Assembly (NCBI GenBank): GCA_045837725.1
Contig: JBEWZL010000202.1
Span: forward strand, 62,001 to 126,000
Direction of reading: 5' to 3'
DNA: 64,000 nucleotides
From: Vermamoeba vermiformis
Lineage: Eukaryota
The position numbers and the translations under genes are program-made. Shown here in pieces: positions 10,752 to 63,607 of the stretch. Numbering within the stretch: the stretch's first letter is position 1; every line of letters starts with the position of its first letter. The notes beneath the pieces are model-generated. The model saw only the letters and a list, made by a program, of their open reading frames with translations. It did no database searches and was not told the origin of the DNA.

Positions 10752-11186
10752 TATTTTATTTTACCTCGTAATGGGTTATCTTTCGATTTTGTCATTTAAT
10801 TGCAACTCAATGCTTGTAAATAATTCTAATTTTCTCGTTCCGAGCCTTTTCTTCCTTCGTATTTTTTAATAAACTCAACAATTACAAATCTTTCTGCAGT
10901 AACACCAAAACAGAGTTATTTTTCTTGTTGTAACAGCTATTTGCAGGTGTTTATCCGAGCGGCAGATGTGGTCGTGAGTTCACAGACTATTTAACAGATT
11001 CGTACGTGCGTTTTCTTCATTAATCACTTTCGTTTCGTGTTGAAGACCAGTAAAAACTCATGCTTAGGCATATTATTACGCCTTTTAGGGCTAGCCTTAC
11101 AAAAAGGGCCTTGCAACGAAAGTTGGTAGGATTTGGTAAGGTCGGGAGTTGCAAATCCATTTCAGCGCGCATAAGTTAATCACGTG

Positions 11187-11338
11187 TGTAACAAAACCAA
11201 GAGTTTGGTTAAGGGGTAAAATACGTGTTTATTGTAGTAAAATAATAAAAGAACGAATAAAACAGCGTTCGAATCGGTTTTGTGCGCTGAGTCACGTGAT
11301 TTATTGCCTACGTGGCAATAAACACGAGTTTTGTTACA
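11187..11338 (-). repeat. 3' LTR (152 bp)
   Basis: Identical to 12371-12522; adjacent to the PPT. Confidence 0.95.
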
Positions 11339-11340
11339 TA

Positions 11341-11350
11341 TCTTCCCCCT
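11341..11350 (-). other. Polypurine tract (AGGGGGAAGA)
   Basis: Purine run 2 nt upstream of the 3' LTR on the minus strand. Confidence 0.85.
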
Positions 11351-11373
11351 AATGAGAAGATGAGTCTCCTGAC

Positions 11374-12321
11374 TCATAACATTGCAGGATCTGGCGGTTC
11401 GGGAGGCTCGATCGTCGCTAGAAGGCGATGTAGAGCAGTGTCAGCAACCAGGGTCGTGTGCTGATTACAGGAGAGCAGGGAGTAGCAGGAGCGATATAAT
11501 GACTCTTTATGCGGGGTTGCGGGCGGTGGATCTGTTCCGCTTTGGATCGGAGCACCATTTCGTAAGCTGTGAGGCGACCAGACGTTGAACACCTGTTTGG
11601 TTGTTGACAAAGAATGGCTCTGGGGAGCTGGAGGCCTATTTCGCGGAGTTGTGACGAGATCGTAGTCAGCAAGAAGTGGATTTGTCGAAGATCCAAATCC
11701 GTTTCTATCTCCATGTGCAGAGCAATCGAGGGCATATACCTGCGAAGGTATGATGGGACTTGAGGAGGTCGTGGCGGTGGCGGAATGGCTGGAACCCAAG
11801 GAAAATTGAAGTGAGGTGCGGATTTGTTTTGATCCAAGATCCGGGCTGTTGTCGATGGAAGGCAACGTCGAAGGCAACAAGCAACTCTCTTCCTCCTCTA
11901 CGAGAGAAGGGGATTCTCCTGAATCCGCGTTCTTGATGGTGACGTCATCAGATGCAGGAGTGAGTTCACTTTCGTGTTCCGCTGGATCTGAGGTCCAAGT
12001 TAAGTCCAATAAATAAGCCATGGATGGTAGAGCAAGGCTAGAGCGTTTGCCAAAAGAGAGACGATAAATTTCGTTGATCCAAATAACTTCGCAGTGGATC
12101 ATGAGAATGAGGTGCTTAAAATCCTCGTACTCAAGACTCTGCAAGTTGCTTAAATCAGCGGCCAAAAAGTTTACCTCGTTGAGAGCGTTGGAGTAAACTT
12201 TTCGCCTTTTTGGATTCGCATCTCGGGCCAAAAATAAGAGATCCGTTTCCAAGAGGGAGCGGCACTGTTGAAGGGCGTTGTGCAGAATATCTAAAAGGCG
12301 CAAGTCCAAACTGTAAGCCAT
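11374..12321 (-). CDS. 315-aa intronless ORF carried by the LTR element; helical N-terminus, Ser/Pro-rich remainder, ends EPPEPPDPAML
   Basis: ATG-to-stop ORF filling most of the internal region, sense to PBS/PPT; no CCHC knuckle, protease, RT or integrase motif seen. Confidence 0.75.
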   Translation of the reverse strand: MAYSLDLRLLDILHNALQQCRSLLETDLLFLARDANPKRRKVYSNALNEVNFLAADLSNLQSLEYEDFKHLILMIHCEVIWINEIYRLSFGKRSSLALPSMAYLLDLTWTSDPAEHESELTPASDDVTIKNADSGESPSLVEEEESCLLPSTLPSIDNSPDLGSKQIRTSLQFSLGSSHSATATTSSSPIIPSQVYALDCSAHGDRNGFGSSTNPLLADYDLVTTPRNRPPAPQSHSLSTTKQVFNVWSPHSLRNGAPIQSGTDPPPATPHKESLYRSCYSLLSCNQHTTLVADTALHRLLATIEPPEPPDPAML

Positions 12322-12351
12322 TTAGTTCGAAGAGCTGCTCGTTAGCATTCG

Positions 12352-12369
12352 ATCCGGTTATCGGAACCA
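12352..12369 (-). other. Primer-binding site TGGTTCCGATAACCGGAT (18 nt)
   Basis: Begins with TGG 1 nt downstream of the 5' LTR; complementary to a tRNA 3' end ...CCGGT-TATCGGA-A-CCA, an acceptor stem resembling tRNA-Glu. Confidence 0.85.
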
Positions 12370-12370
12370 A

Positions 12371-12522
12371 TGTAACAAAACCAAGAGTTTGGTTAAGGGG
12401 TAAAATACGTGTTTATTGTAGTAAAATAATAAAAGAACGAATAAAACAGCGTTCGAATCGGTTTTGTGCGCTGAGTCACGTGATTTATTGCCTACGTGGC
12501 AATAAACACGAGTTTTGTTACA
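12371..12522 (-). repeat. 5' LTR (152 bp)
   Basis: Identical to 11187-11338; adjacent to the PBS. Confidence 0.95.
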
Positions 12523-13739
12523 ACGTGCATATACAATTGCGCGAAATAAAAATACTGGCTAATAATTAGCTCATTTAAATTATTTGGAATTTTAATATGG
12601 TTGATCTTAATTTGTTTCTAACAGACACCCCAAAAATGAATACAACGAGCAGCACCGTTACATATTCATATCGAATAGATAAATATCCCCATGCAAGTAA
12701 GGCTTTGAAGCTGTCGATATTGATTGCTGATAGATTTGCAGCTGCACCGTATTTCACTTCGGCCAAAATGGCTTTTCCTACAACTGTGACAGCCATAAAA
12801 GATTCCGTAAAGAGATCGAAAGGCACAACGAAGCGAGAGCTTACTCCTGACGATTTTCCTTACGTAGAAACGACAAACGTTCTTATTCTTCACATCAACG
12901 GCAAGCAATTGCCGTTCCCGTTGCCTAACGTAAAAGTATGGAATGGTTCCGATGCTCGCGCTCCGTTTCTAAATCGAAAGCATATCCTCGCACTATTGGG
13001 AGCGGCGTATGAGAACTTTTCTGAACCCGACCAAAAACCTCTCTATGCAGTTCAAACAATGGACCCAGACTGCTTACTTACAGAATGGAGCTACCATGCC
13101 CTAAATGACCCTGAGATAATAGCAGAATTTTTGTCGGCAGGAACAATAACTGACACGGTAGACAAGCGACAGGCCTTTATTAACGCGTTGTATAAGACTG
13201 TGTTCATGCAGCGAATTGTTATTCTTCGTGCTTCAGAGTTGGGCCCCCAAGATAATCAGCTTGAGAGTAAGTTCTGCTGTGAACTTGATCAGTTATTATA
13301 ACTTTTCTTCAGCTATTAAAACAATGATTAAAAACAAAATAATGGCCAGATTTAAGGATAAGCAGATCACACTCAAAGGCAGCAAGTCATTGAAAATCAC
13401 TACCAAGTCTCTGAATCACAAATTTGATGGTGCCTCTGTTGGTGAATGTGTCGACTTGTTTAACGCACTTGTTGACAACTTCTGCAAGCCACCAACAGAC
13501 TACCCTTTTGATGTTCCCAATATTGACAGAAGTTTGCTCATCTTTGGAATTGATGAGTGTCAAGTACGTTGCAACTTACTATGTCATCTCGGCTAACCTT
13601 TTGTTGGTAGGATTACTGTAACAAATCTGAGGGCACCCAGAAGGAAGATCTTATTTATAAGTTGCTAACATCTGCCGCTGATGCAAGACGTGACCTAAAG
13701 AACACCATCTACTTTTGGCTGGTCACGGGTACAATTGTA

Positions 13740-14834: not shown

Positions 14835-16642
14835 ATGAGTCGACAATTAGAAAAACCGCGATCAAAAGCGGCAGTAAAGCAAGTCGAATCTGAAGACGAC
14901 AGCGTCGATGAGCTTGATGCGGAGGAGGAAGAAGAGGAAGTTGTTCAGCCAAAGTCTAAAGCTAAAAATAATACAAAAGGGGCAAATAAACAACGGTCGG
15001 CACAAACTGCAGCTGCATCTAGACAAGATCCCGAAAACGAACGGGCGGAACGACGAAAATTAAGACAAAGCTATCGAAATATTATAGAAACTACTACTGG
15101 TAATTATCATACATATAATCGGCGTTATTGATCATTTTCTGATTTTTCTGAATTAAAATAATTATTAATTCAGTCGCTAATAATTCCTCGTATTTTCAAA
15201 CAGTAAATAAGCACGAATATATTCAACCCGAATCAGATAAATTAATTCAAGCATTACAAACCGCCGATGAATTATTTGCAAACGGTAAGTCCCAACATCG
15301 GAACTTTAATATTTGTCCTAGCCTTAATAATTATGGCTCCTAGTTAAAATGCCGCGAGAAGCAGCGCTCGATTCTGAATTTATGGGTCTAGCGTCTAAAC
15401 TCGGCGCGGAACAAGTCAGCAAACTTCAGACTGGCTTTCGAAGTTACAACATTTACGACTACGTGCTCAAATTAAGGGCCATGCTGGTACGTCCACGTGC
15501 TTCAATATTGCCATATATAGGCATCTAATCTATAAATAGACTGTTGCTGATCTCGGCGCCGAACAAGATGCAGCAGAAGGACAGTTAGATTGGACCAAGT
15601 TAGAAAAATCAATACGGCCCGTGTACAAAACAATTCCGTCCGCGAGTTTCATGTACGGAACATTGAGCTTAGAAATTCCGCAAAAGAAAAAGAAAGCAAG
15701 AACTGTCAGAGAAAAATTGGCGGCTAAAGTCACTCCTGAAGACGTAAGTAAAGATCAGATCTGTGGATCTTACGAGGCTAATCTGACATGATATATAGGT
15801 AGTTGATACTGAAAAAGATCGCGAAAGTGAAACATCGAAGCGAGTAGCGCACATTGGCTCGCTGTTGCAAAAGACAGGAAAAATTAATTTTTGGACATTT
15901 GTGACAGATCCAACCTCGTTTGGACGCACAGTCGAGAATATCTTTCATTTTGCATTTTTGATTAAGGATGGATATGCGAAGCTGTCTACAGACGAGAGTG
16001 GATGTCATGTTGTTGGTACGAACAAAAATAGATCTGACTGCATATTTGACACTCAATTAACTCTATTTATAGAACCGTGTCATCGACCCACACAAGATGA
16101 TTATGCTTCTGAAAGTGCGACTAGAAAGCAAGGCGTATTATCTTTGGATTATCAGACGTGGGAGGTAAGGATCCGGATCCATCGTGACCAACTGATCTCA
16201 ACGACTAACACGTTCGCCACAGAAAGTTGTAGCCAAGTATAAGATTACTAAAGCTATCATCCCGCCACCTCCAGTCAATCCATACAACAGGCCATATGCT
16301 TCAGCATTTAACAACAATAACAACGCGGCGCAAAGTTCACAGAACGGCACGCTGAGCACGCAGAACAAATCAATGGCCAATCAACAAGAATCAGACGAAG
16401 ATGTCGAAGAACTCGAAGCCGATGAGGAAGAAGAAGAGGTCGATGTCGTTGCTAATACTAAGAATAATACGAATGCGAAGACTAATAAGAATAAGAAGTC
16501 CAAGAAGCAAAAAGAATCGACGAGCAGCGCGGATGAGGACGAACGGCCAAAAACTCAAGTCTCGCGCAAAAGAAAGGCTGCTGTGATCGAAGAAGATGAC
16601 GATAGCGAAGAGGAGCAGCCTAAAAGGAAAAAACGGGGTTAA
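14835..16642 (+). CDS. NSE4: Smc5/6 complex kleisin NSE4
   Basis: ERRKLRQSYR, V.MPREAALDS, INFWTFVTDPTSFGRTVENIFHFAFLIKDG, QGVLSLDYQTW. Confidence 0.9.
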
Positions 16643-20437: not shown

Positions 20438-25658
<5,221 letters not shown>

Positions 25659-26668: not shown

Positions 26669-29194
26669 TTACATATTTATATTGCAGATGCCATAGAATT
26701 CTATGCGATTGTTAAGGAAGGTCCAATAACCTGGTACACGGATCTGATCTTGGATCCAGCTTCTTCCAAACACTAAAGATTTAACAGGCGTAGTATAAGG
26801 TCCTAAAGTATGAATGTGGTCGCCACTTCTGAGGTTCCAAATATAAATCTTCTTATCTTGCCCACCTAAAAGAATCAGATCAGCCGAAGCCTTCAATTAC
26901 GATGGTTAATGCGGCTATTAAGCTTTAAAAAATAATACCAAAAATAAAAAGAGAGGGGGACCAATTACGGCCTGTTGTACAATGCACGTCTGATCCGTTC
27001 GCAAGTCAAGTTCAAATTAGCTAGCCAATCTGAACTCAAACTCACGCCGCGACCCTCTAAGAATAAATTGTTCAATCATCGATGCACAGCGCGGTGGCTG
27101 GCAGGCTTAGAGATTAAACTAAGCAGAACAGATACTACACTTCGATCGGAGCCAAGGCTCGGAGAAGGTACTTCTAAGTTGTCTACTTAGGCTTCATATA
27201 GCTACGTTTGAATTGTAAGGGATAATTTACGGGACCAAAATAAATTTTTTGGTCGAGAAAGGTGTTGGAAGTTGCGGATGTACTTCTCTAAGAATTCTCA
27301 ATTTGTCGGTTATTAAAATTAGCTTACCAATAAATACAAACTCTTCGTTCGGATCAACGGAGAATTTGTTTGAGGTCATCTGGTTGGAATACTCCATCCT
27401 AGTAACAACCTTGCTAACTCTTCGATCCCAAACGTTGATCTGACAAAATTTAATCAACAAACGGCTCTATTAGCACTTCGTTGTCATATACTTACTACGC
27501 CATTTATAGAATTGGAGACCAGATAGTTATCATCCCTCAGTAGCTTCAAGCAGGTGATCGATGACTCGTGTTTCATGAGAGGCGCGTGACTTCCAAACGG
27601 CGTTCGTTGCGTGTGCTGACGAATATCGAATGTACGAACCTTGCCATCGCGTGATCCATTTAACAATATATTGCTCTTGAGAATATATTAGCTCCAAGGA
27701 AACAACTTGCATAGGTAGATCTGACGTACGTTTTCAGTGAACGCTTGCGCAAAAACATCGCTTTTTTCAGTGAAACAATTTATCACCTTCGTCGTGACAG
27801 TATCAAGGATCATGGCACCCTTGCTGATGCCCATAGAAATGTATTGTCCATTCGAAGACCATTGATGACACCACATTGAACCTTTGCGCAGCTTCGTTAC
27901 ATGTTCGCACTGAAGACGCGAATTATATAGCTTTAATTCGCCGCTACGACCTCCTCCTAGAATAGTCGAACTAAATGCAGATCCGGTCAATAAAAGTAAT
28001 TAACTTCAATAGTAGAATTACTCTACCTGTACATTGTCTTGTGCTTTGAATGAAATCCCACCGAGCTTATCTGCAATCATGTATGTTAACAATACTATTA
28101 TTATAACAGTCTTAACGTACTGAACTCGATTCTGTCGTGCATAATCCTTTGACATAAATATCTTTGTCTCGCCATTCAAGTTTATCAACCCTGTGAGTCA
28201 CAATGTCAGGTTATAAGTCCATGAAATATCTTGACGTACATGAATTGACCGTCTCTTAAACCAGTTATCAATGTCTCATTGTTCTGTACAATCATGTCAA
28301 AACATTCTGTGTCAGGAAGTGGCCAAGGAAAATTATATCGGCATTCTATCCGCTTGAATAGCGCTGCTAATGATTTGCTAAATATAGAGATATTAGTATA
28401 AGAATATTTTAAATTGATTCCACTTACGATACAAATTCTTTCGGTCGTTGAGATCTACCAGCTTCTCTTCGTATAAGAGTTGATAATGGACTCTTATATT
28501 TTTCGCTTAATATAGATATATTTACACCGCGCTCTATTCTTTCCTTTTCCTCTCGCAGTTGCCTCTCCTCTTTCTGTTTGCGATCCTTTTCCTCAGCCTT
28601 TTTCAACGCCTCTTGGTACTTCTTGTACATTACTGTGCCTGTTGGTGGCACCTTAAAGTACCTATTTATATCGGGGTCGTAGTAATAGCCTGGAAGCGGT
28701 GGCGCTGGCTCTGTTTTTGTGTCATTCGAGGATGGGCTTGACACTTTGGGTTGCTGAGGACTTTGATTCGATTGGTTACTCTTAATATTATTATTTACCA
28801 AATTGAAATGCAGGGTCCTATTATTTCCTGCGTGCTGTGTCGTGTTATCTGAAACAAGATGGATGGTGAGCTTCTTTTTGTACTCTTTTTTCTCAATATT
28901 TCTATTATGATCATCCGACTCTTTTCTTCGATATTGAGGCTGATTATAATTTTTTGGTGAATAGGCTAAATGATTATTGCGATCTGTATAATTTTTGGAC
29001 GATTTTCTATTATTTGAATAGTTCTGGCCTTGCCTATTGTGATTATTACTGTTTTGGCTTTTTTTGTCTGTAGATCTAGAATTATAGTAAGATCTTGACC
29101 GATCACCCTCGTTATCTCCTCGTCGACGCTTTTGTTCTCTATCATCCATTTCGTCTTCGCGCCTTCGTTTTTTAAAATCCTTATTAGAGCTCAT
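26669..29194 (-). CDS. DCAF4: DDB1-CUL4-associated WD40 protein (DCAF4/WDR21-like)
   Basis: LPGYYYDPDINRYFKV N-terminal motif; KSDVFAQAF, NGSRDGKVRTFDIR, VWDRR (WDxR) WD40 repeats. Confidence 0.75.
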
Positions 29195-31220: not shown

Positions 31221-32473
31221 TTAGAACTGCAAGACCTTGACGGCTCTGGGCTTGTCCTCCAAGGAGAAAGCGTCAGTAGCCTTCAAGGATCCTTGACCCA
31301 ATTGAAGCTCGTTGAAGCGAGTCGACAAGTCTTCGCCATCGATGAGGTCCAAGTCGTCGCTGAGGGGAGCGGGAGCAGGGTCGTAAGCGTGCAACTGACG
31401 GCGCCACTTGCGAACTTGACCGTCCCAGCTGCGCTTGCTGCACTTTTGGTACTTGTCAGGAGTAGAGGGCATGCCCTTGACGCGTTGGTCCTTGGGCACC
31501 TTGGCGACGTAGTTTCTGTAGCCATCGGTGTTCTTGCCGTACTCGATTTGCTTTTGACGAGCACGGAGACGAGCCTCGTCTGACTCACCACCCTCAGGAG
31601 CTTCATCCTCTTGAGGAATGGCGGGCACGGGCTTGGCGGCAACGGCGACAGGAGCAGCAGGCTTGACTGTCTTGGCAACAGCAGGCTTTTGCACTTGAGG
31701 CTTGAGAGCGGCCTTGGTGATAGCAGCAACACCCTTGGCAATGTTGATTACGGAGCTCTTAGCAGCATTGGCGTCGTTCTCCTTATCGACAGCGACAGCC
31801 TTAGAAGGAGCAGCAGTCTTGGTAACGACGGCAGCAGCAGTGGTAGCCTTAGGGGCGGCAATAGTAACGTTCTTGGGCTTCAAAGCGGAGGCAGTTGAAG
31901 TCTTGTTGGCAACGATTGGAGCCAGAGCCTTTCGTTCCTTAGCAGGTTGGGCGGGCTTCTCGGCAGCAACCTTAATCGCGGGCTTAGCGACGACAGCGAC
32001 GGCGTTCTCTTCAGCCTTGGTTGACTTTTTGGCGGGCTTTTGGATGGCAGATTGCGATTTAGCCTTGACCAAAGTCTTAGAAGCGGTCTTAGTTGAGGCC
32101 ACGTCAGAATCAGTTTGAGCGGGGCGCTTAACCTAATTGAAGAATTACAAGTTAATAAAATCAGATGCCGATGAGAAAATAAATTCAATTTACCTTGGGC
32201 TTCTTGACAGCCAAAGCCTCTCCTCTTGAGAGGACGAGTTCAAAGATGCGTTCTTTCAATTGAGAAGGAACAGAGACTTTCTAAACAAGACAGGATGTGA
32301 GCAAGAATTAAATCATGAGCTTGCGCGTTGATATTTACCTGCTCGAATTGAATCAAAAATTCACGAGTGAAAGAGTTTACGGCTTCGACCTGTAGGTTGT
32401 AAGAAGCGACGTTAGATGTGATTGCTTAGATACGATCAAATTGCAGGTGTTAATAACTTACACTAGCGGCCAT
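31221..32473 (-). CDS. SLBP: Histone mRNA stem-loop binding protein
   Basis: RLRARQKQIEYGKNTDGY...PSTPDKYQKCSKRSWDGQVRKWRRQLHAYDP; three short 5' exons starting MAAS. Confidence 0.92.
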
Positions 32474-32759: not shown

Positions 32760-34017
32760 TTACATATCACGCTGTACAGTTTCGAGAAGTTGCGCTAACC
32801 AACGGGCGGTGGGTTGATCGTCCGTTAGGTAGGGCAGGAACGTGCCATCCTTAAAGGCATCAGGTAGGCAAGACCTTAGCGCCTCGCGGGCTCTGATTAA
32901 GAAGTTAGAAATTGATTGCAGTCACAGATGCGAAACAAAATAATTAATTTGAGCTGATCAGGTTGAAAAATTGGAAACATGTTAATATTCATCCTCTTCC
33001 TATCATAATGACATCATTTTAAGCTCTAATTATTTTCGAAATCGATGCTGAAAAACTTTGCGGCTAAAACTTACCTCGGATTGTCTGCGAGGCGGAGGTA
33101 GCACCGAATAATGTGCTTCAGTAGCCGCTGAGAAGGTTGAGTTACCAGCTGCTGAACCATGCCCATCAACACACTGCTAACTGCGTAGAATCGAGCAGCG
33201 GTGGCGCACACGTAGCTGAGGCCCATATCGTCAAGCAAAATTTTCTGCACTATGAACGTAGCGACTGTCTTAGAGAGCTCGCTACCGGTCTCCATGATGC
33301 GCAGACACAACGGAATGATCTCAGTAGATAAAAGAAAATTGATCACTTCCGAATCGTCCATCTTTAAGAGCAAAATTAGCTCCGGTCAATGTTACGTCAT
33401 CTGATCGTAAGCAAGTGGCTATTTACCTTCACCAAGGCACCGATAACACCCAAGCTCGTCAATCGAAGGTACTCGAAGGGTCGTGATTTAGTGCTTGTGT
33501 TCAAGAAGGGGTACAGAAACAAAGGGATGTGGGCTAGATTAAATTGATAAAAAATTAGACGATTTTTTCTTGTGGCAAAGCTGGTATATAAATTATCACA
33601 TAATGTTGTTTGTAACATATTCGAATGATTCGGTTGTAAATAAAATTACTGAAGCATAATAAATTGATTTTTACATAATGATAAAATTTTCCTCTTACCA
33701 TTTAGGAACAAGGTCCTCGTTTCGCGATGAGATGCTACACACTGAAGAAGGGCAAGTGCATTGCATACTCGATTTGATTGAGAGACTTTGAGCTTTGGTG
33801 GTGACAGCAGCGGATAGACTGCGACTATCTCTTGCAATAGCGCTGCAATAGTTCCAAAGCTGTACCATAGAATAGGTGCGAGATCAGGCACCTCTTCTCG
33901 TCGCTTGCTAAGTTCAAGCAAAGCTGCAGCTCTTGTTTCGGGGTTTGCAAGGTTAAAAACGTATCTATATATTACATCTTCCCGAATATCTTGTGTAGGT
34001 CCGGTTGCATTTTGCAT
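32760..34017 (-). CDS. CNOT9: CCR4-NOT subunit 9 (Rcd1/Caf40)
   Basis: [70 protein letters not shown]. Confidence 0.95.
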
Positions 34018-34216
34018 TTGTATAATACAAAGAGTAAAATACGATTTTGCTCTTGCACGAAGCTAATGACTAGCTTGTTGTTGTCAGCTTATTTTGATGT
34101 TTCGTTTGACCAACTTTTTTTGCTGCTGAGTTTTTGCAGGCAGCATTTTTTTGACGGATCGCGCACCATCGTCAGTTTGTTTTATTGTATTGATAATACA
34201 ACACATACTTGCAAGA

Positions 34217-37200
34217 ATGGCAGATACTCATAACCACTCCAAGCAAGTACAGAAGGTCGGGCTGAAGTACAGTCCTGAGTTTCTTCAACTCTTCACTGAC
34301 CTCGCGTCGATGGATCTTAAAACAAGAACCTCAGCTGGTACCGAACTCTTAAAGACTGTTATTGATAAACAAGCTGAGTTCGAGAAAGCTGAATCCAAAT
34401 CAGGCGATCACTGCCCTGAACTTCAATACACAGTCAAGCGTTTGTGCAAAGGGTTGGCATCATCAAGAGATGGTGCTCGCCAAGGTTTTGCTACAGTCCT
34501 TACTGAGGTAATTATTATTTTGACAAATCTCGCATCGCACTCGCTGATCGCGATTTTTTATCGGTTATAAACCCGAAAATATTTCGAAAAAACAGTTTTA
34601 ATGATATACTAAATATTCCTTGACGTATAATCTCATTACACGCTGGATGGTTTGGATCCATTTCTAATCTCAATCCAGATTTTGAAGACATTCCCTAGCG
34701 TTTCAACAAAGACCGCATTGGATACCATTATGGCGGAGAATGAAGTAAAAGGAAAGGAGATTAAGGGCAAGGCTCCCCGTGAACAGTTATTCGGTCGTAT
34801 TTTTGGATTGGCCACCCTCGCCAGATCCAAGCGGTTGGAGGTAATTTTGCTTCGCTATATTATAACTTAATTACGTTTGATTTATTTATTCAATACAATA
34901 GAGCGATGTCGCTTCCATGTCAAAATCCGAAGTTGAAACTTACATGAAAGAAGTCGCAGCCGTTATTATTGGCGAATTATTGCGCGATGCTAAAAAGAAA
35001 GAATTTTTAGGAGAACTTTGCTTTGATGTCGTTGGCAGTTCATTGAGCCAATTCAAAAAAGAACATTACGAGAAATACATTCAGCCTTTATTACTCCCCA
35101 AAATTTCAGTTCCAAGCGAAGAATTATCACCCGACGCTTTATTATTAATTATCTACATGAAGAAAACATTCAAGGTACCGAACAAAGAATTTTTAAATTT
35201 ATTTGGCTGGATCCAACTAATCTTTCGTTCAAGTTTGACGTTACTACCCTTGGAGGCCAATGGAAGTCATCTAAGTTAATCTCAAGCAAGAACTTCGCCG
35301 CACTTAAGCCTGCGTTGATGGTAAGTTAATCGTACAAACTCGTCAGTTCCAGATCCTAATGTTATTCTAATGCAGAAAGCAGCAAACGCATTCCCTAAAT
35401 TCCATTCAGTATGGCCTCACCTCTTCGAGGAATTGGCATCGCGCGACGCTCCCGGAGCATTTGTCGAGTCCATGAAAGAGATCTTCGACGAATGCTTGGG
35501 ATCTGAAGCCAGCAAATCAGCTCGTTACATGGGCTTGCACGTGATGGCTTTGTTGTTCGATAAGATCGATGGTGCTCTTGCTGCTATGGTCTTGACACCT
35601 AAGATTGTCGATTCATTGGCCAAGACAGCCACGCTCAAGAAAGAAGTCTCTTATCAAGCCGCTAAGCGAGTGGTACGTAGATCTTGCTCAAAATTTAATC
35701 TACACTTTTCTAATCGTATACAGTTGTCTTCTATCACTGCCTCTGGTGCTAAGAGCGAAGCTGCTGCCGCTGCATTGTTAGAGGCGTTGCAAGGACAAGA
35801 CAACTCGAAGAGCTTTGATGCCAAGTCACAGACTAAGTAAGCAACAAACAATAATACAAAGCGAGCCTATATTAATGCTCTTGTTAGAACTGTCTCGGCT
35901 TTGTTGGCTCACGTTAGCGCTGAAAAGGCCCACGAATATTTGAACAAGGCTATTAACGACTTCAATGAAGTTCACGTTAAAGAAGAGGACCTGTAAGTGT
36001 TCTAATATAATACTGTTATAGTACTAATATCTATCAATAGTGAGGGTGAAACAAACGTCGAACAAGGCAAGCAAAAGATTGTCGATATTAAGCGTAGCGT
36101 TGCTTTGGATCAGATCTACTTCATGCTCCGCACTCCTCTCGCCTTCAAAGACGAGGCCTTGACGATCTACGCGCTTAAGTTCTTGTTCTTCCACGCGTTC
36201 TACGTGCGCAAGGAAGGCAAGAGCAAGGGCACGCCTAAGAAGGAAGATGAAGTCCTGTCGAAGTTGTCCGTTAAATTGCAACCTGAACTAAGTGCTCGCA
36301 TGAGAAACAGCTGCAAAGAGCGTTTGTTCTCGTTGTTGGACTTCTTGTACAAGGCTGCTAAGACAAGTACGTAATAAGCCGTCCCAAAATTTTATTTGTC
36401 TGGATCTAACATCGATGTACAGGCAAAAAGTCAAGTGAAGGCAAAGAAAAGAATGGCGATGAAGGAGACGATGAACCTAGCTCTGAAGAGGAGGTCGTTA
36501 ATGGCAACAAAACTATTGACGGCGTTAACTTGATGAAGAGCGGTGAGTTCTGGGGTGATGTGCTGGTCAAGTTCCAAGCTCAATTGGACAACTCCGGTCA
36601 ACTCACTCGCAAACAAGCTATCCAAGACGACGAAGCCAAGGAGGCCTACAGTGCTGGCCTTGCTCTCTTGGAGAAGATCCGTAAAATGGTGAGTAGAAAT
36701 AGTGCAAAGTAATGCGTTGAAACAATTAGCCAATGATGATCCACTGTGACTTGATTCCTTTGAGAGTTTCACATCGTACTGAGTTTCTGAAGGCTAATTC
36801 AACTCATAACATCATTTTTTGTTCTTTACTGTTCAGTCATTCTGACTTGATCTTTTTTGCAGCGTGATCAAGCTAGCAAGGGCGACAACAACGACGTTAA
36901 AGTCCGACGACTTCGTGCATTTGAATCGTTGGTCATCTTCGTCTTGTTGGAGTTCAACAACGTGCCTGAAGAGACTGCAGATCTCGTTCCCGAAATCGAA
37001 ATGTGCTTGCAAAAGATCTTCGAGGCCTCGCCCAAGAAGGCTAAGAAGGAAAAGACTCCCAAGAAGGCCAAGAAACACGATCACGGCGACGAAGAGCACG
37101 ATCACGACGAAGAAGCTGGTCCCTTAGAAGTTCTTACTGACGTGCTTGTTGGCATGCTGGTGAAGGAGTCGCACTTGTTGCGTGAGATTGTCAGCCAAGT

Positions 37201-39169
37201 CTTCGTGTCATTCATCGCTGATTGGTCCGCTGAGTGCATTGGCATTCTCTTGTCTGCCGTTGAGGACCCTGAGAGTGTCATTGATGTTGAAGATGTCAAC
37301 GAGGATGACGATGAAGAGGACGAGGCCATGGAGTTAGACGAGTTCCAAGAGAAGTTCATGAACAAAGAGGGCGATGATGACGAAGAGGAAGATGACGACG
37401 ATGACGAGGATGATGACGAGGAAGACGAGGACGAAGAGTCCAGCGAAGAGAAAGAGGACGTCAAGATGAAGGACGACAAGAAACAAGAGGGCAAGAAGGG
37501 CAAGAAAGCCAAGGAAGATAAAGAAGATTCCGACGAAGAAATGGAAGACTTGCCTCCCGCTGACGACGATGAAATGTTCAAGATGGATGAGGCCTTGAGC
37601 AAGATGTTCGCTGAACGAAAAGAATTGAAAAAGAAGCGCAAAGGTACGACTTAATACTTCTAACTATCAACCTTATTAATATCTGCTTAGATCAAGAAAA
37701 CCAACTCACTCACTTCCGTATTCGTGTCTTGTCGTTGTTGGACGCTTACGTGAAGAAAATGATTCACAGCAACACCGTGCAATCACCACTCGTGTACAAA
37801 TTGTTGACGCCCTTGTTGACCATTGTCAAGGACGGCTTGAAGAAGAAAGAGAACTTGAAGGACTTCCTCAAGACTTGCACGAACATCTACAACCGCGTCG
37901 TCAAGGCCGCCAAGCCTGCTGAGAGCGGCAACGACATTGAAGAGTTGAAGACTATTTTGGACTCGTTGTTGAACATTGGCTTGAAGTCTAACATCCGTCA
38001 CATCATTGACTTGTCACGTGCCGGTGTTGCCTTCATTATCAAGGTGTTGACTCACATTAATAAGTCCGACAAGAAGCCCGTAAGTAGCTCACATTATCGT
38101 AGTTGCCATATATTAATATGACGTTAGCTCGGTGCTTTGGACCTCCCGTTTGCCCGACAGACCTTCACTAATGCTTTCAGTGTTCTTGCCAACAAGAAGA
38201 ACACGACATTGACCCCTGATTTCTACGGCGTAAGTTCAATACGATGAGTATCAAATGTGTTCGTGCTAATGATATTGTTATATAGCCATTCTTGTATAAT
38301 AATCCTGATCTCGGTTGGGCCTTGGCAGACATCGTTGCTGCTGCCGTGAAAAATTCGTCAGAACTCAAGTGCATGCAACCTCTCGTGCAAATGCTCAAGA
38401 ACAAATCAGTCTCTGACCACAAGGACAAGCTGAAGAGTATTGTTCCCGATTGGATTGCTGGATACAAAGCAGCTATTACTAAGAAAGAAAAGAAGCCTTC
38501 ACGCGCTGAATTTGCCGACATGAACAAGTGCACCACGAGCTTATTGAGGGCCTTTGTTGCCAACTTTGATGTTAATACTGTACGTACTACCGTTGCTCGG
38601 TATCTATACTTGCACGTACTAATAGTCAATTCCTATTAGTTGCACAAGACCCTTGGCGACTGGAAGAGTTTGGTTGCCGCCATTGACACCGCCGTAGCGA
38701 GCCCTGAATACGATCGCAAGCAAGCTGTTCTGATGACCGCTCACCAGCTGAAGAGCATGATCAGTGAAGGGTAAGTAGTGGCGTGTAGCAAAGTGACACC
38801 TGTCTAACTCGATGCTGTAGAACCATCACCGAGATGCCCAAAGAAAATAATAACAAGAAAGAAAAGAAGGATAAGAAAGAAAAGGGCGATAAGAAGGAGG
38901 GCCAACAAGTCAATAACAATAACAAGACTACCGCTGTTAATAACAAAGAAAAACCAGCCGAAAAGAAAAAGCCTGCTGGATCCACAGAAGAGGCACCTAA
39001 GGCTCAAGCCCCTACCAAGCCTCAACCTCCTAAAGAGACTGCTAAGCCTCAAGTTGCCAAGGACAATAAGAAGCCGCAACAACAGACTAATGGCGTTACT
39101 GGTGTGAAGAGAAAACAAGAGTCAAATGGCACATCTGACAAGCGACCGAACAAAAAACAGAAACAATAA
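34217..39169 (+). CDS. MYBBP1A: Myb-binding protein 1A / Pol5 family nucleolar protein
   Basis: YTVKRLCKGLASSRDGARQGFATVL, LFGRIFGL, DDEMFKMDEALSKMF, HFRIRVLSLL; acidic tract and K-rich tail. Confidence 0.88.
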
Positions 39170-40093: not shown

Positions 40094-41090
40094 ATGAAGC
40101 GAAAAGGATCAAATATTGATGAGGAACGCGAAGCAAAGCGCAGCAAATTAGATCCAGATGACCTCAGTACAGACGCTCTTCGTGAGATCTTCAAGTATTT
40201 GAGCGATGTTGATATTATACGCGTTGCACGAGTAGCCAAAAATTGGAATAAAGTATCTCATAGCGAAAGAAGCCGATTTATAACGCAAGTAAGGCGATCT
40301 TAAAAAATTCAACTTAAGTATTTTCTTCCTAAATATTTCTATTGTAATCTAATTCCGGTAACTTATTATAAGTATTATTTATAAGTATTATTAATGCGAA
40401 TATTAGAGAATTGCTAGATTGAAATTGGTAAACGGCATTAAGATTGAAACGGATTCGCGCAAGTTAGACGAGATAATAAACGTAAGGACTTACATATTCT
40501 GCGGTGACTATTGATTAATTTATGGACATCGACAGAAGGAGATTACGGCGCTAAAAAAGGAATTGGATGCGCTAACCGCATTTCGCAAGGAGAACTCTAA
40601 AGCACTGCCTGTAATAGAGCGATTTGAAATATGGCGCACATCCTTGGCACCAAAAGAGCACTTCCCGTACCGACAAACTCTTGCTCCTGAAGGTAAAGTT
40701 AATCTGGGTTTTTCCGGATTCAACTCGTGCTTTTCCTAAACAATGCTTGCAGGTGAGGTTGATATTTGGGAGATGGGACAATTTGCGAAAGACTCGGAGG
40801 GCTACTACAAAGGTCGTACTTTTGAGTTAGATGAGTTGCTGGAGGTAGTAGAGGAGCATTTGGAGGTTAGAATTGAAGATCTGCGGAGTGCGGAACCAGA
40901 AACACACCAAGGGAGTGAAGGCAGTGACAAGGATGAGAAGGATGACAAGGGTGACGAAGAGGAGGGTGACGAGGATGACGAGGATGACGAGGATGAGGAC
41001 CCAGAACACCGTGAAAGACTTGCTCAGCTAGAGAAATATCTGCTGATGTTTATGCAACTTAACTTGGGTAGTGTTTGCAATGACTGGTGA
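40094..41090 (+). CDS. F-box protein
   Basis: DDLSTDALREIFKYLSDVDIIRVARVAKNW F-box; acidic stretch near C-terminus. Confidence 0.7.
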
Positions 41091-48045: not shown

Positions 48046-50089
48046 TTACTGCTCATCGGGATCAACGAAGTTCTCCTTGACCATGTGAGTCTTGATCCAC
48101 TCGGTGGTGACTGACTTAGGTCTCTCAATAGGAAGACCCAAAGCTCTGTCCCAAACCAAGCTAGACAAGACACCAATGGCTCTGGAAACACCGAACAAGA
48201 CGGTGTAGTATTCGTGTTCCTTCAAACCGAAGTATTGGAGCAAGACACCAGAGTGGGCGTCAACGTTGGGCCAAGGGTTCTTAGCCTTGCCTTGTTCTCT
48301 CAAGACGTCAGGGACGACTTCGTAGAGTCTTGAGACCAACTTGAACATAGAGTCGTGAGGCAAGTGCTTCAAAGCGAACTCACGTTGGCTGGTGTAACGA
48401 GGATCAGTCTTTCTCAAGACGGCGTGACCGTAGCCAGGGACGACTTGACCACCCTTGAGCAAGTTCCAGACTTCAGTTCTCAACTTCTCCTTAGTGGGCT
48501 CTTCAACACCGATCTTCTTTTGGAGATCGACCAAGAAACGAAGAACTTCTTGGTTGGCAAGACCGTGCAAAGGACCAGCAAGACCGTTCATACCAGCAGC
48601 GAAGGCCAAGTAAGGGTCAGACAAAGCAGAACCGACCAAGCGGACAGTGTGGGCAGAGACGTTACCACCCTCGTGGTCGCTGTGGATAACCAAGTACAAG
48701 CGCATCAAGTCGTCGAATTGAGCGTTGTTGAAGCCCAACAAGCGAGCGAAGTTAGCGCTGTAGTCCAACTTGGCGTCGTGAGCGGCGAGCTTGCCGTCCT
48801 TGTAGGTGTTTCTGTAGATGCGAGCAGCAATCTCGGGCAAAGCGGCGAGAATGTTCAAGGTGTCTTCGAAGGAAGAGTCCCAGTACTCGGTCTTCTTGGT
48901 GCCAGATTGGTAGGCCTTGGCGAATTGAGACTCGGATTGCATGGCAGTGACGGCAGCAGACAATTGAGACATGGGGTGGAGGTGCTTGGGGAAGTTGTTC
49001 AACAAATCAACAACGTGCTTGGGGAGCTTGCTGCGCTTGTGCAATTCGTGGGTAATAGCGTTGGCCTAGTAAAAGAATAACAAAAGTTAGACGCAAAAAA
49101 AAGATACGGATCGCGTGTCGGATGTGGCAGTAAACAAATAAAAAAAGAATATCACGGACTTTTAGCACCACGGTCCCATCAGAAGTAGATTGCTTCTAGT
49201 ACCGCAGTGACTCTAAAGCCGTTTGTATTGATGCTCGAGAGCATGTAGTGGCGTGCTTACTTGATCTTGAGTGGGAACCTCGCCAGTAATCATCAACCAC
49301 AACAAAGCCTCAGGGAGGGGTTCAGTACCCTTGCCCTTGGGCAACTTCTCTTGCAACTCGGGGATGGTGAATCCACGGAAACGAATACCCTGTAACAAGA
49401 TCGTGAGTTTTGACTCGTACTCCAGATGGCACCGCATTGATTTATGGGAATGTTAACGTACCTCGTTGGAGTCCAACAAAGAGGTTTCGTAAACCATAGC
49501 CTTAACGTCTCTCATACCAGCGTAGGCCTAATAAAATTACGCGTTAATTTTTGGATCGATCGCATCCCGCAACGGCTAGCTGATTGGATCTTACTTGTTC
49601 AACAGTGCAGGTACCCAAAACCTTAGCACCGAGCTTGGTTCTGATTTCCTTGACTTCCTCTCTCTTAGCAGGAATCAATTCCTTCAAACGCTTCTTCAAG
49701 CCCTATTTTTAAAAATAAAAATCAGACCTATTCCTGAGCACGAAAATAAATAATATGACATCAGCTATATTACGGTAAATAATTAGGTAAAATTATCCGG
49801 TTATTGTATCGGTCATTAAAAAGTTTTCTGGTTTTGTGGGTGTGGATGAGATTTGTTTCTTCGCCGCGTTTCGTTGCACTATATCGAATTTAAGCATACT
49901 TACAGATTCGTCTTGGTGAGTAGCATAAGAGCGAGAGGCAATGGAGCCGAAGATCGACTTGTTAGAGGTCTACAACAAACGAGGATTAGATTTCATGCCC
50001 CGCAATTATCTTCGAATAATTAATTATACCTGAACAACGTTAGATTTGCCCAAGGCCTTAACAACTGATGAACGGAGAGTAGACAACAT
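48046..50089 (-). CDS. CS: Mitochondrial citrate synthase
   Basis: Presequence [72 protein letters not shown]. Confidence 0.97.
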
Positions 50090-61433: not shown

Positions 61434-63607
61434 ATGGAATATAGACGCATCAAGGAACATTATATATTAGGAAAAGAGTTGGGCAAGTAAGTAACAATTG
61501 TGGATTTTTGCCTCTGTATTCAGCAATAGAATTAATTGAGAATCTTGAACGTTAAATTTACAATTAATTTTATCTTCTCAAATAATATATAACCACAGTA
61601 ATAATAAATACAATAATGCGATCAAATTCCTATTAAAAAGATGATAATTTCAATTTAATTTGATTTCTTTTGTGGGACACATATTTTGTCGCGAGATTAC
61701 ATAAAATTACTTTAATATACACGACAAGATTATATTCGTATTTGACGAGATTATTTGATTCGCTAGATTATTTCACTGAATAATATCTATCAGCTTACCT
61801 GTCAATTCATTCAACTTTGGCCGTTTTTACGATTAATTTTATATTTAATACGATGCTATATATAACCCGCACTTATCAACATTAATTCGTTCAAATTTTT
61901 TCTGTCAGATCGCGCAGCTCAAATTTACTCATTTTTTTTATAATTATAGGGGCTCATTCTCGGTGGTCGTTCATGGCACTCGTCTTCAAGATGGTCTCAA
62001 CGTAGCAGTTAAAATCATTAAGAAAGTTCCAGGCAAAGATCTGTCCTTGTTACATAGAGAAATCCATATCATGCGCCAATTGGTGCATCCGGCGATAGTC
62101 TCGTTGATAGACGTATTCGAAGACGAGGAACATATATATATGGTCATAGAACTGGTCACTGGTGGCATGTTGTTCGATCATATCGTTGCGAAAGGATCTT
62201 ACAGCGAACAAGATGCGGCCAACATTGTGCGACAGATAGTCTTAGCAGTTAATTATATGCACGACAATGGTATTGCTCATAGAGACTTGAAGCCCGAGAA
62301 CTTATTGTGCTCCGGAGACAACCCGAATATCATCAAAGTAACAGATTTCGGATTAGCGAAAAATTTTGGCGAAGCGACGATGGTGACTAAATGCGGCACT
62401 CCAGATTATGTTTGTAAGTAATATAGCAATAGCATATGATAGAAAACCGCCTATTAAGTATCAAATATTTGAATTTAAAGAATCATCTGGATGACGGTCC
62501 CATATTATAATTTATTTGTGGATAATAATCGCTTAAAAATTAATTTTTTATCATAATATAGCACCGGAAGTCCTTACCGGCACAAAAAGTGCCTATAGCC
62601 CTGCAGTGGATGTTTGGAGCATTGGTGTAGTAACCTACATTTTGTAAGTCATAATCTCAATTCAAAATCAATTATAATATGATATATATCGTGCTATACA
62701 TTAGATTAATCGATGCCGATAATAACAACAACCACCGACAATATAAAACCGAATTGTTTTTAATTTTTCCTTTTTTGGAAATCTCGTTACACATTGTCGG
62801 AGCCCACGCGACCAAGATACTAACGTCTATTTGTTATATTAGGTTGTGCGGTAGTCCTCCTTTCTTCGCGCCTAACCGACCTCAGTTGTTTGAGCGGATC
62901 AGAAGCATTGATTATTGTTTCCATTCACCTGGTAAGTCGTCGACCCTGGAGCTGTTACATCCATCCACAACAGCATCGCATTCTTTAAATCTCGTTTTAT
63001 TAAGCACGATAAGAATTGATCGCTTGTTGTGGTGGCAAGGTTATAAACTTCGTGTACAAATTTTTTTTAATCAGATCTAGCTTTTTATAGAGGAATTTAA
63101 TACTAATATTGTCGTTTTTATTATAGAGTGGGATATTATTTCCGTAGATGGTAAGTCTTGTTTGATAATAGGCGAACCAAGCTCGCATCTGGTTAGCCGA
63201 TCTAGATCCAGCTTAGTTCGTTAAAAATTGCTAGATTTTTAAGCTATTTTCGTTATTACGGCTCATTCATTATAAATTATGATAATAATATCGCTAAAGA
63301 ACGCTAGGTAGTCTCATGTACCGGCCAACGAATTGCTTCTTAAAATCCAATTAGATTTTATAAAATAGTTATTTTAATTAGTGTTAGATGGTATATATGC
63401 CTATACCTACTAATTATATTCTTATTAATAGCTAAGGACTTCATTCGCCGAATTTTGGTAGCAGATCCAACTCTGCGGCTGACGACGAAGCAGTGCTTAG
63501 AGCATCCTTGGCTGACGAACAATAACAACGCAGAGCGCACCATCCCACGCATCGATTCGGGCAAGATGAAGATGTACTTGGAAGACAGACGCGGCAACAC
63601 AGTGTAA
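61434..63607 (+). CDS. mlkA: CAMK-group Ser/Thr kinase, myosin light chain kinase A-like
   Basis: ELGKGSFSVV, ELVTGGMLFDHIVAKGSYSEQDAA, HRDLKPENLL, DFGLAK, CGTPDYVAPE; tail IDSGKMKMYL resembles Dictyostelium MLCK-A (recalled). Confidence 0.85.

Follow-up and report, generated by a model that had tools for sequence, protein, structure and literature searches.

Positions 11187-12522 of a 64,000-nucleotide stretch of Vermamoeba vermiformis DNA (contig JBEWZL010000202.1, positions 62,001 to 126,000; here called the window) almost certainly hold a recently mobile, non-autonomous long terminal repeat (LTR) retrotransposon. The element is 1,336 bp long, is located on the minus strand and is a member of a very small family, and its interior is nearly filled by a single open reading frame (ORF) of 315 aa. 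Combining this reading with a retroelement origin of the ORF gives a fuller account, to which we assign about an even chance.

The two LTRs (11187-11338 and 12371-12522) are identical at 152 of 152 positions and form the sole long direct repeat within the window. Both begin with TG, end with CA, and carry a perfect 11-nt terminal inverted repeat, TGTAACAAAAC (LTR positions 1-11 against 11338-11328). Given that the ORF, a site resembling a primer-binding site (PBS) and a polypurine tract all lie on the minus strand, the element is minus-oriented; read on the plus strand, the LTR is not followed by a TGG-initiated site, nor is the other LTR preceded by a purine run. An earlier note, made from the letters of this DNA, had listed the LTRs with their termini, the ACGTG duplication, the PBS-like 18-mer, the polypurine tract and the ORF, and each was found where it had been placed, with the correction that the element is on the minus strand, which the note had not stated:

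11182-11186, no strand: left copy of the target-site duplication ACGTG, read directly; a single ACGTG is found in the empty-site contig of sequencing run X6
11187-11338, minus strand: 3´ LTR (sense orientation), 152 bp, 100% identical to 12371-12522
11341-11350, minus strand: polypurine tract AGGGGGAAGA, ten purines, 2 nt upstream of the 3´ LTR
11374-12321, minus strand: 315-aa ORF, ATG to TGA, with a predicted helical head (about residues 7-109) and then a disordered acidic body rich in Ser, Thr and Pro
12322-12348, minus strand: upstream ORF of 8 codons within the leader, ending in a TAA that abuts the main ATG
12352-12369, minus strand: PBS-like 18-mer TGGTTCCGATAACCGGAT, TGG-initiated, 1 nt after the 5´ LTR
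12371-12522, minus strand: 5´ LTR (sense orientation), identical to 11187-11338
12523-12527, no strand: right copy of the target-site duplication ACGTG, read directly

The leader between the 5´ LTR and the ORF start is 49 nt, and 35 nt separate the ORF stop from the 3´ LTR. The complement of the PBS-like 18-mer ends in ...ACCA, like a tRNA 3´ end; no tRNA genes were found within the window, and hence none there to pair with it. In LTR sense numbering, AATAAA occurs at 34-39 and at 106-111, and a T/A-rich box is found at about 91-102. The LTR also carries a 23-nt near-palindrome (11300-11322) and CACGTG, and sense positions 41-46 bear TCACGTGA. An Rfam scan of 11000-12700 (E ≤ 10) detected no ribozyme and no tRNA-like element in or near the LTRs, just two sub-threshold mir-375 rows (16.3 bits, with a gathering score of 46.7). 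Two further features of the layout can be read directly. The stop codon of the upstream ORF and the main ATG meet without overlap in TAAATG, a termination-reinitiation type of arrangement, and the reconstructed insertion target (11180-11186 joined to 12523-12530), ...TCACGTGCAT..., holds the palindrome CACGTG.

The strongest sign that the insertion is recent comes from empty sites and a second locus, not from LTR identity. When public sequencing runs were queried with 11000-12700, 24 runs from 15 studies were listed, 20 with at least part of the query and seven with at least half of its words; four of the 24 were compared with 10800-12900, and runs X9-X20, in which the words are present in small proportions, were left aside. 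In run X6, labelled as an aquifer metagenome, one contig (record 13) proceeds from 10983-11168 through 14 letters to 12523-12672. The 14 letters at the joint equal 11168-11181 except for one change, and the contig is an empty site with a single ACGTG. Records 14-16 of the same run are the element itself, joined to another left flank. The last five letters of this flank, a loose end before 11187, are TGACC, and TGACC also opens the sequence into which an X1 contig passes on leaving the LTR, pointing to an insertion at another locus that has a 5-bp duplication of its own. Both duplications fall in the 4-6 bp range of LTR retrotransposons. The X1 loose end had been considered as the polypurine tract of another element, and thus a possible partner, an idea that was dropped since its first five letters are the TGACC of the X6 left flank. 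X1 also contributes an empty site at the window's own locus: its flanks are identical to those of the window, record 1 stops exactly at 11186, and record 8 overlaps record 1 by 30 nt (k-1) across the empty junction. The X1 material appears to hold both filled and empty alleles. The ORF and the LTRs moved together as one unit. The recent insertion proposed in the earlier note is thus upheld chiefly by the empty sites in X6 and X1 and by the TGACC locus; the identical LTRs on which it was based say little by themselves, as 0 differences in 152 only bounds their divergence below about 2%.

The X6 records differ from the window unevenly. Over the host flanks (10829-11168 and 12523-12672) there are 28 differences in 519 positions (5.4%), whereas the element (11187-12262) shows two in 1051 (0.19%; Fisher's P = 4e-12 against the flanks). 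The low divergence of the element is not explicable by constraint, because five of the six differences among copies of the ORF are nonsynonymous. Either the element spread recently between diverged lineages, by sex, introgression or transfer, or the metagenome contains a mix of strains. The mismatch merits attention as a possible case of the former.

The family appears to be small. Word depth in X1 rises from 463 and 419 over the two flanks to 725 over the interior and 1754 over the LTR. The 76 nt at 12282-12357 form a bubble whose branches have depths of 499.6 and 262, and an LTR variant with a 1-nt deletion (12397) accounts for 315 of a depth of 1987. If the flanks represent two haploid doses, the interior would be present in about three and the LTR in about eight, numbers that a heterozygous copy at this locus, a copy at the TGACC locus and roughly one solo LTR would account for. 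Before 12370, the LTR is seen in yet a third context. Word depth is not a copy number, a caution that applies to our reading as well, and 'a few' copies is a rough estimate. Several X1 contigs share just 27-40 nt of the LTR (12394-12433) and then diverge; they and the deletion variant represent LTR copies, older or related, from other places in that genome.

That the element is non-autonomous follows from its content. The 1032-bp interior is too small for a protease, a reverse transcriptase (RT) with RNase H, and an integrase, the set that an autonomous element of the Ty1/copia, Ty3/gypsy or BEL/Pao kind would need, and the ORF matches no Pfam family at E ≤ 10, with no gag, protease, RT or integrase among them. 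Among the 144 stop-to-stop frames of at least 90 aa in the window, none matches RT, RNase H, integrase, retropepsin or gag; 25 of the 144 match Pfam (E ≤ 1e-5), all with host-type domains that include citrate synthase, the SNF2, chromo and DUF1087 domains of a CHD helicase, DNA_pol_phi, Rcd1, SLBP, Nse4 and protein kinase. The description of a miniature LTR element lacking gag, protease, RT and integrase signatures is therefore borne out. Because it encodes no enzymes, the element must be mobilized in trans. We infer this mobilization, together with the transcript ends and the tRNA primer discussed below. The earlier suggestion of a parasite of an autonomous element is to this extent a necessary inference, although no partner was found.

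Expression of the element is suggested by run X5, which comes from a differently labelled organism and whose RNA nature is only a guess. X5 holds the element from 11216 to 12400 with zero differences, and none of the flanks. The first and last positions of its contigs, 12400 and 11216, are equivalent: both are LTR sense position 123, about 25 nt after the T/A-rich box and 12 nt after an AATAAA. Such ends would be expected of a transcript whose R region is very short. However, the overlap of the 5´ contig with the LTR is exactly k-1 = 30 nt, as a branch in a DNA graph would also produce. Raw RNA run X21, which carries the same species label, had 0 reads on the 2.1-kb stretch, flanks included, and is hence uninformative on the element.

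The ORF is a genuine coding sequence and not a chance frame. It occupies 948 of the 1032 interior bases (92%), and when the interior was shuffled 2000 times by mononucleotide, an open frame of 315 codons never arose in any of the six frames (maximum 264, mean 102); per frame, a run of 315 codons escapes a stop with a probability of about 1.4e-6. When scored by the codon usage seen in eleven host exons, its frame is the best of the three, if weakly (0.007, compared with -0.235 and -0.322), and the correlation with host codon usage, calculated in the manner of relative synonymous codon usage, is 0.54.

What the ORF encodes is, as far as sequence comparison goes, an orphan. A word-indexed search of a 5.8-billion-protein collection returned one match, P0001, also 315 aa and identical at 311 of 315 residues; it carries an NCBI source in that collection and is a copy of the element's ORF. 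The ESM Atlas gave no usable match for the whole protein or for residues 1-115, PDB sequences gave three rows at E ≤ 10, none meaningful (best E 0.43), and a tblastn search of the window found only the ORF itself. AlphaFold2, run with no alignment, predicts helices at residues 7-31, 37-58, 65-90 and 98-109 (block means 57-78), with a predicted local distance difference test score (pLDDT) below 50 at residues 93-308. The fold is thus modelled as a generic helical bundle followed by disorder. Ser, Thr and Pro make up 58 of the 153 residues at 116-268, and the C-terminus reads ...EPPEPPDPAML, in agreement with the helical head of about 110 aa, disordered Ser/Pro body and PPEPPDP end described from the letters. 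The only internal repeat is a heptapeptide: MAYSLDL (residues 1-7; 12301-12321, minus strand) recurs as MAYLLDL (residues 101-107; 12001-12021, minus strand) at a second in-frame ATG. The repeat may be chance (BLASTP E 0.33 in a small self-comparison); if it is not, it could mark the junction between the head and the disordered body.

We suggest the following explanation. The element would be transcribed from its 5´ LTR, reverse transcribed from a tRNA primer paired with the PBS, the polypurine tract serving to prime the plus strand, and integrated with a 5-bp duplication, with protease, RT and integrase supplied by another LTR element. In autonomous elements gag starts after the 5´ LTR and pol ends before the 3´ LTR, and the placement of the ORF matches these bounds; gag also diverges fast. 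The ORF is more likely than not a fast-evolving, gag-derived head, possibly fused in frame to the 3´ tail of the parent polyprotein, and the element would then work like a plant TR-GAG or 'semi-autonomous' element. For the source of the ORF, the coding region of a parent element is somewhat better than an even bet; a captured gene is a good deal less probable, and an unknown or de novo source slightly less probable again. At about those same odds, somewhat better than even, we favor a diverged gag-derived origin over a true non-gag cargo. That the ORF still serves the element's own packaging is possible but rather doubtful.

A number of results pull against this account. No autonomous partner or parent element was found among the window frames, among 1,835,955,588 representative proteins, or among 6724 longer candidates. 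The exhaustive HMMER search of those representatives returned P0001 as its sole match, and none of the 6724 longer candidate proteins matches the ORF. The JGI metagenome contigs yielded 0 matches to a 22-nt pattern from the LTR end, and none of the 85 pattern matches from the protein scan was confirmed as a relative. The structural comparisons are no more helpful to a gag origin. The AlphaFold2 model is poor (mean pLDDT 44), and its helices are long (22-26 residues), unlike the helices of capsid domains. Foldseek found 0 matches in the PDB at E ≤ 0.001, its top rows being She2p, ferritin-like proteins and designed bundles. The best VIA-align Z score, 11.2, was to unrelated helical bundles, where helical models reach about 13 by arrangement alone, and the 50 VIA-align matches listed include neither a capsid nor a Gag chain. 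The protein is acidic (37 Asp and Glu, 22 Lys and Arg), unlike a nucleocapsid, and has no CCHC zinc knuckle, its 6 Cys and 11 His being scattered. On the side of mobility, the short side of the X1 empty-site joint is just 25 + 5 letters, so that it is weaker than the X6 contig. Finally, five of the six variable positions of the ORF between copies are nonsynonymous, where the neutral expectation is 76%.

This last count bears on whether the protein is maintained. Four of the six positions (11754, 11768, 11910 and 12206) are those at which P0001 differs from the window, which are also the variant positions of the X1 interior contig, and each of the four changes an amino acid. So does the change at 12312, a minor X1 variant; the change at 11644, specific to X6, is synonymous. 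The probability of at least five of six being nonsynonymous is 0.004 at omega 0.1, 0.04 at 0.2 and 0.57 at 1. Strong purifying selection on the ORF is therefore unlikely, while moderate constraint, neutrality and positive selection are all possible. The statement that the element 'maintains its own protein' is not supported by these numbers. No version of the ORF (window, P0001, and the X5 and X6 pieces) has a frameshift, but with a divergence of 0.5% or less this absence carries no weight. Frameshifts and neutral evolution in other copies had been named as observations that would undo the idea of a functional cargo; the first was not seen in any copy, and neutrality fits the data.

Two alternatives survive about equally well, and both are unlikely. 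One is that the ORF is true non-gag cargo, such as a packaging adaptor, an anti-silencing factor or another accessory protein, carried by the element and maintained by selection. The lack of any detectable gag, capsid or nucleocapsid feature agrees with this, as do the acidic, largely disordered nature of the protein, its orphan status among 1.84 billion representatives, the near-exact fit of the ORF to the interior, and its intactness in all versions (window, P0001, and the gap-free X5 and X6 pieces). Yet intactness says little at a divergence of 0.5% or less, five of six differences between copies alter the protein, the codon-usage signal is weak, and no function-bearing domain was found. 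Moreover, a family of few doses leaves little room for selection at the level of the element.

The other is that the element is an inert relic, an in-frame internal-deletion derivative whose ORF is a leftover and that spread through its LTRs, PBS, polypurine tract and packaging signals only. The bounds of the ORF coincide with the gag start and pol end of autonomous elements, and five nonsynonymous changes with one synonymous fit the neutral 76%. A recent derivative should resemble its parent polyprotein, however, and not one longer protein was found to match the ORF in any part; nor are there any Pol remnants at all. For the same reason, the proposal that the ORF is the 5´ fragment of an ordinary gag, which the earlier note had named as a result that would overturn its reading, found no support when it was looked for. 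Domain remnants are common in non-autonomous LTR families, according to excerpts of PMC13570524, which agrees with a relic.

More improbable is the capture of a host sequence, in which a host mRNA would have been copied, without introns, into the space between the LTRs through template switching during reverse transcription. The ORF has no introns, while the neighboring DNA_pol_phi, SNF2 and Rcd1 genes are each spread over several frames, and its GC content (0.495) is nearer to that of host coding sequence (0.467) than to that of the LTR (0.355). Against capture, the searches turned up no parental gene: the only match in the 1.84 billion representatives and the 5.8-billion-protein collection is P0001, which is itself a copy of the ORF of the element, and tblastn against the window finds the ORF alone. 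Alternatively, the structure might not be mobile at all: an ordinary gene could be flanked by a direct repeat that arose by chance or in assembly. Its single copy in the window would fit, but this reading has next to no chance of being right: an independent run shows the site empty, with one ACGTG; the LTR-interior unit recurs at another locus, where TGACC is duplicated; and LTR-interior junctions occur in independent runs.

A bolder combination of these ideas can also be considered. Here, a miniature LTR element would be spreading a non-gag, lineage-specific protein, with a helical head and an acidic disordered tail, faster than its host lineages diverge. A 'coding TRIM' (terminal-repeat retrotransposon in miniature) would then have been passed on recently by introgression or horizontal transfer, a view that draws on the 0.19% divergence of the element against 5.4% in the X6 flanks, and its protein would act in packaging or in countering host control. 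We regard this as quite unlikely.

The element is inserted in a gene-dense region with short introns, and no other transposon-type domains were found in the 64-kb window. Genes recognized there include:

21181-23935, minus strand: CHD-type chromo/SNF2/DUF1087 helicase
31224-32132, minus strand: SLBP
33074-34062, minus strand: Rcd1/CNOT9
34130-37651, plus strand: DNA_pol_phi
48049-49065, minus strand: citrate synthase
61849-62418, plus strand: protein kinase

Close to the element is a 234-aa ORF (12597-13301, plus strand) with its ATG 70 bp downstream of the element; this ATG is altered in the X6 relative (12597 A>T), so the true start is uncertain. A U2 spliceosomal small nuclear RNA gene at 26951-27169 (minus strand; Rfam RF00004, 56.8 bits, E 1.4e-08) is the sole Rfam family above its gathering score in the window. 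GAN-rich repeats with a 9-nt periodicity were noted at 37280-37459, 40905-41018, 14880-14942 and 16385-16447. The first block sits within the DNA_pol_phi frame (36851-37651), and the repeats look like Asp/Glu-rich coding tracts rather than mobile repeats.

What the element means depends on the nature of its ORF. If the ORF is no more than a gag that has diverged or is decaying, the element adds another family to the small non-autonomous LTR elements; it would then serve as a clean marker of insertion polymorphism and point to an autonomous element active in this genome. If the ORF is functional and not gag, the smallest LTR elements can carry and spread an accessory gene of their own. In that case the element, at 1.3 kb, with two to three copies and with filled and empty alleles together, would offer a compact system for asking what a non-autonomous retroelement must encode.

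Several known kinds of element invite comparison. Gene-capturing LTR retrotransposons have a host-like ORF between their LTRs that moves with them; the present element differs in that no parental gene is detectable for its ORF. Retrozymes differ too, as no hammerhead ribozyme was found in the element's LTRs. The 152-bp LTR is within the length range of TRIM LTRs. In the excerpted text of PMC13570524, TRIMs are elements of less than 1 kb in the strict definition, or less than 1.5 kb in the extended one, with a short non-coding interior. Examples given in excerpts of PMC4558846 and PMC13570524 are Cassandra in plants and ta-TRIM in Echinococcus, and TRIMs outside plants are thus on record (PMC4558846 and PMC10886601, likewise in excerpt). 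As portrayed there, TRIMs share with the element a target-site duplication, a PBS (PBS-like here), a polypurine tract, dependence on functions in trans and proximity to genes, and its 1,336 bp pass the 1.5-kb limit. The element nevertheless exceeds the strict 1-kb limit, and 92% of its 1032-bp interior is one ORF, in contrast to the non-coding TRIM interior.

Large retrotransposon derivatives (LARDs) are, in the same excerpts, longer than 4 kb and non-coding (PMC13570524). Like other deletion derivatives, they resemble the element in being non-autonomous and derived from autonomous elements, and such derivatives may keep coding pieces (PMC13570524, in excerpt). At 1,336 bp, and coding, the element is not a LARD as these are defined there. 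Families described in those excerpts as bearing remnants show recognizable GAG, PROT, RT or INT fragments, whereas the present ORF shows none (PMC13570524).

The closest described kind, in a comparison with the literature on TR-GAGs and TRIMs, is the plant TR-GAG, which excerpts of PMC4350172 and PMC13570524 characterize as a short non-autonomous LTR element with one ORF, encoding GAG, and no enzymes. Within what these excerpts describe, the two have in common LTRs, a PBS (PBS-like here), a polypurine tract, exactly one ORF, the lack of protease, RT and integrase, and enzymes presumed to be borrowed in trans, from which the term 'semi-autonomous' derives. They differ in that the TR-GAG ORF is recognizably GAG, while the ORF described here is without a detectable gag signature, albeit with a poor model and a fast-diverging gag. 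They differ also in scale, since TR-GAG elements are given there as less than 4 kb and the present element is 1.3 kb, in a family of few doses. An 'undescribed coding TRIM family', as the earlier note had it, therefore overstates the case, given that single-ORF non-autonomous LTR elements are already known from plants as TR-GAG (PMC4350172 and PMC13570524, as excerpted). The element is a new family of a known kind.

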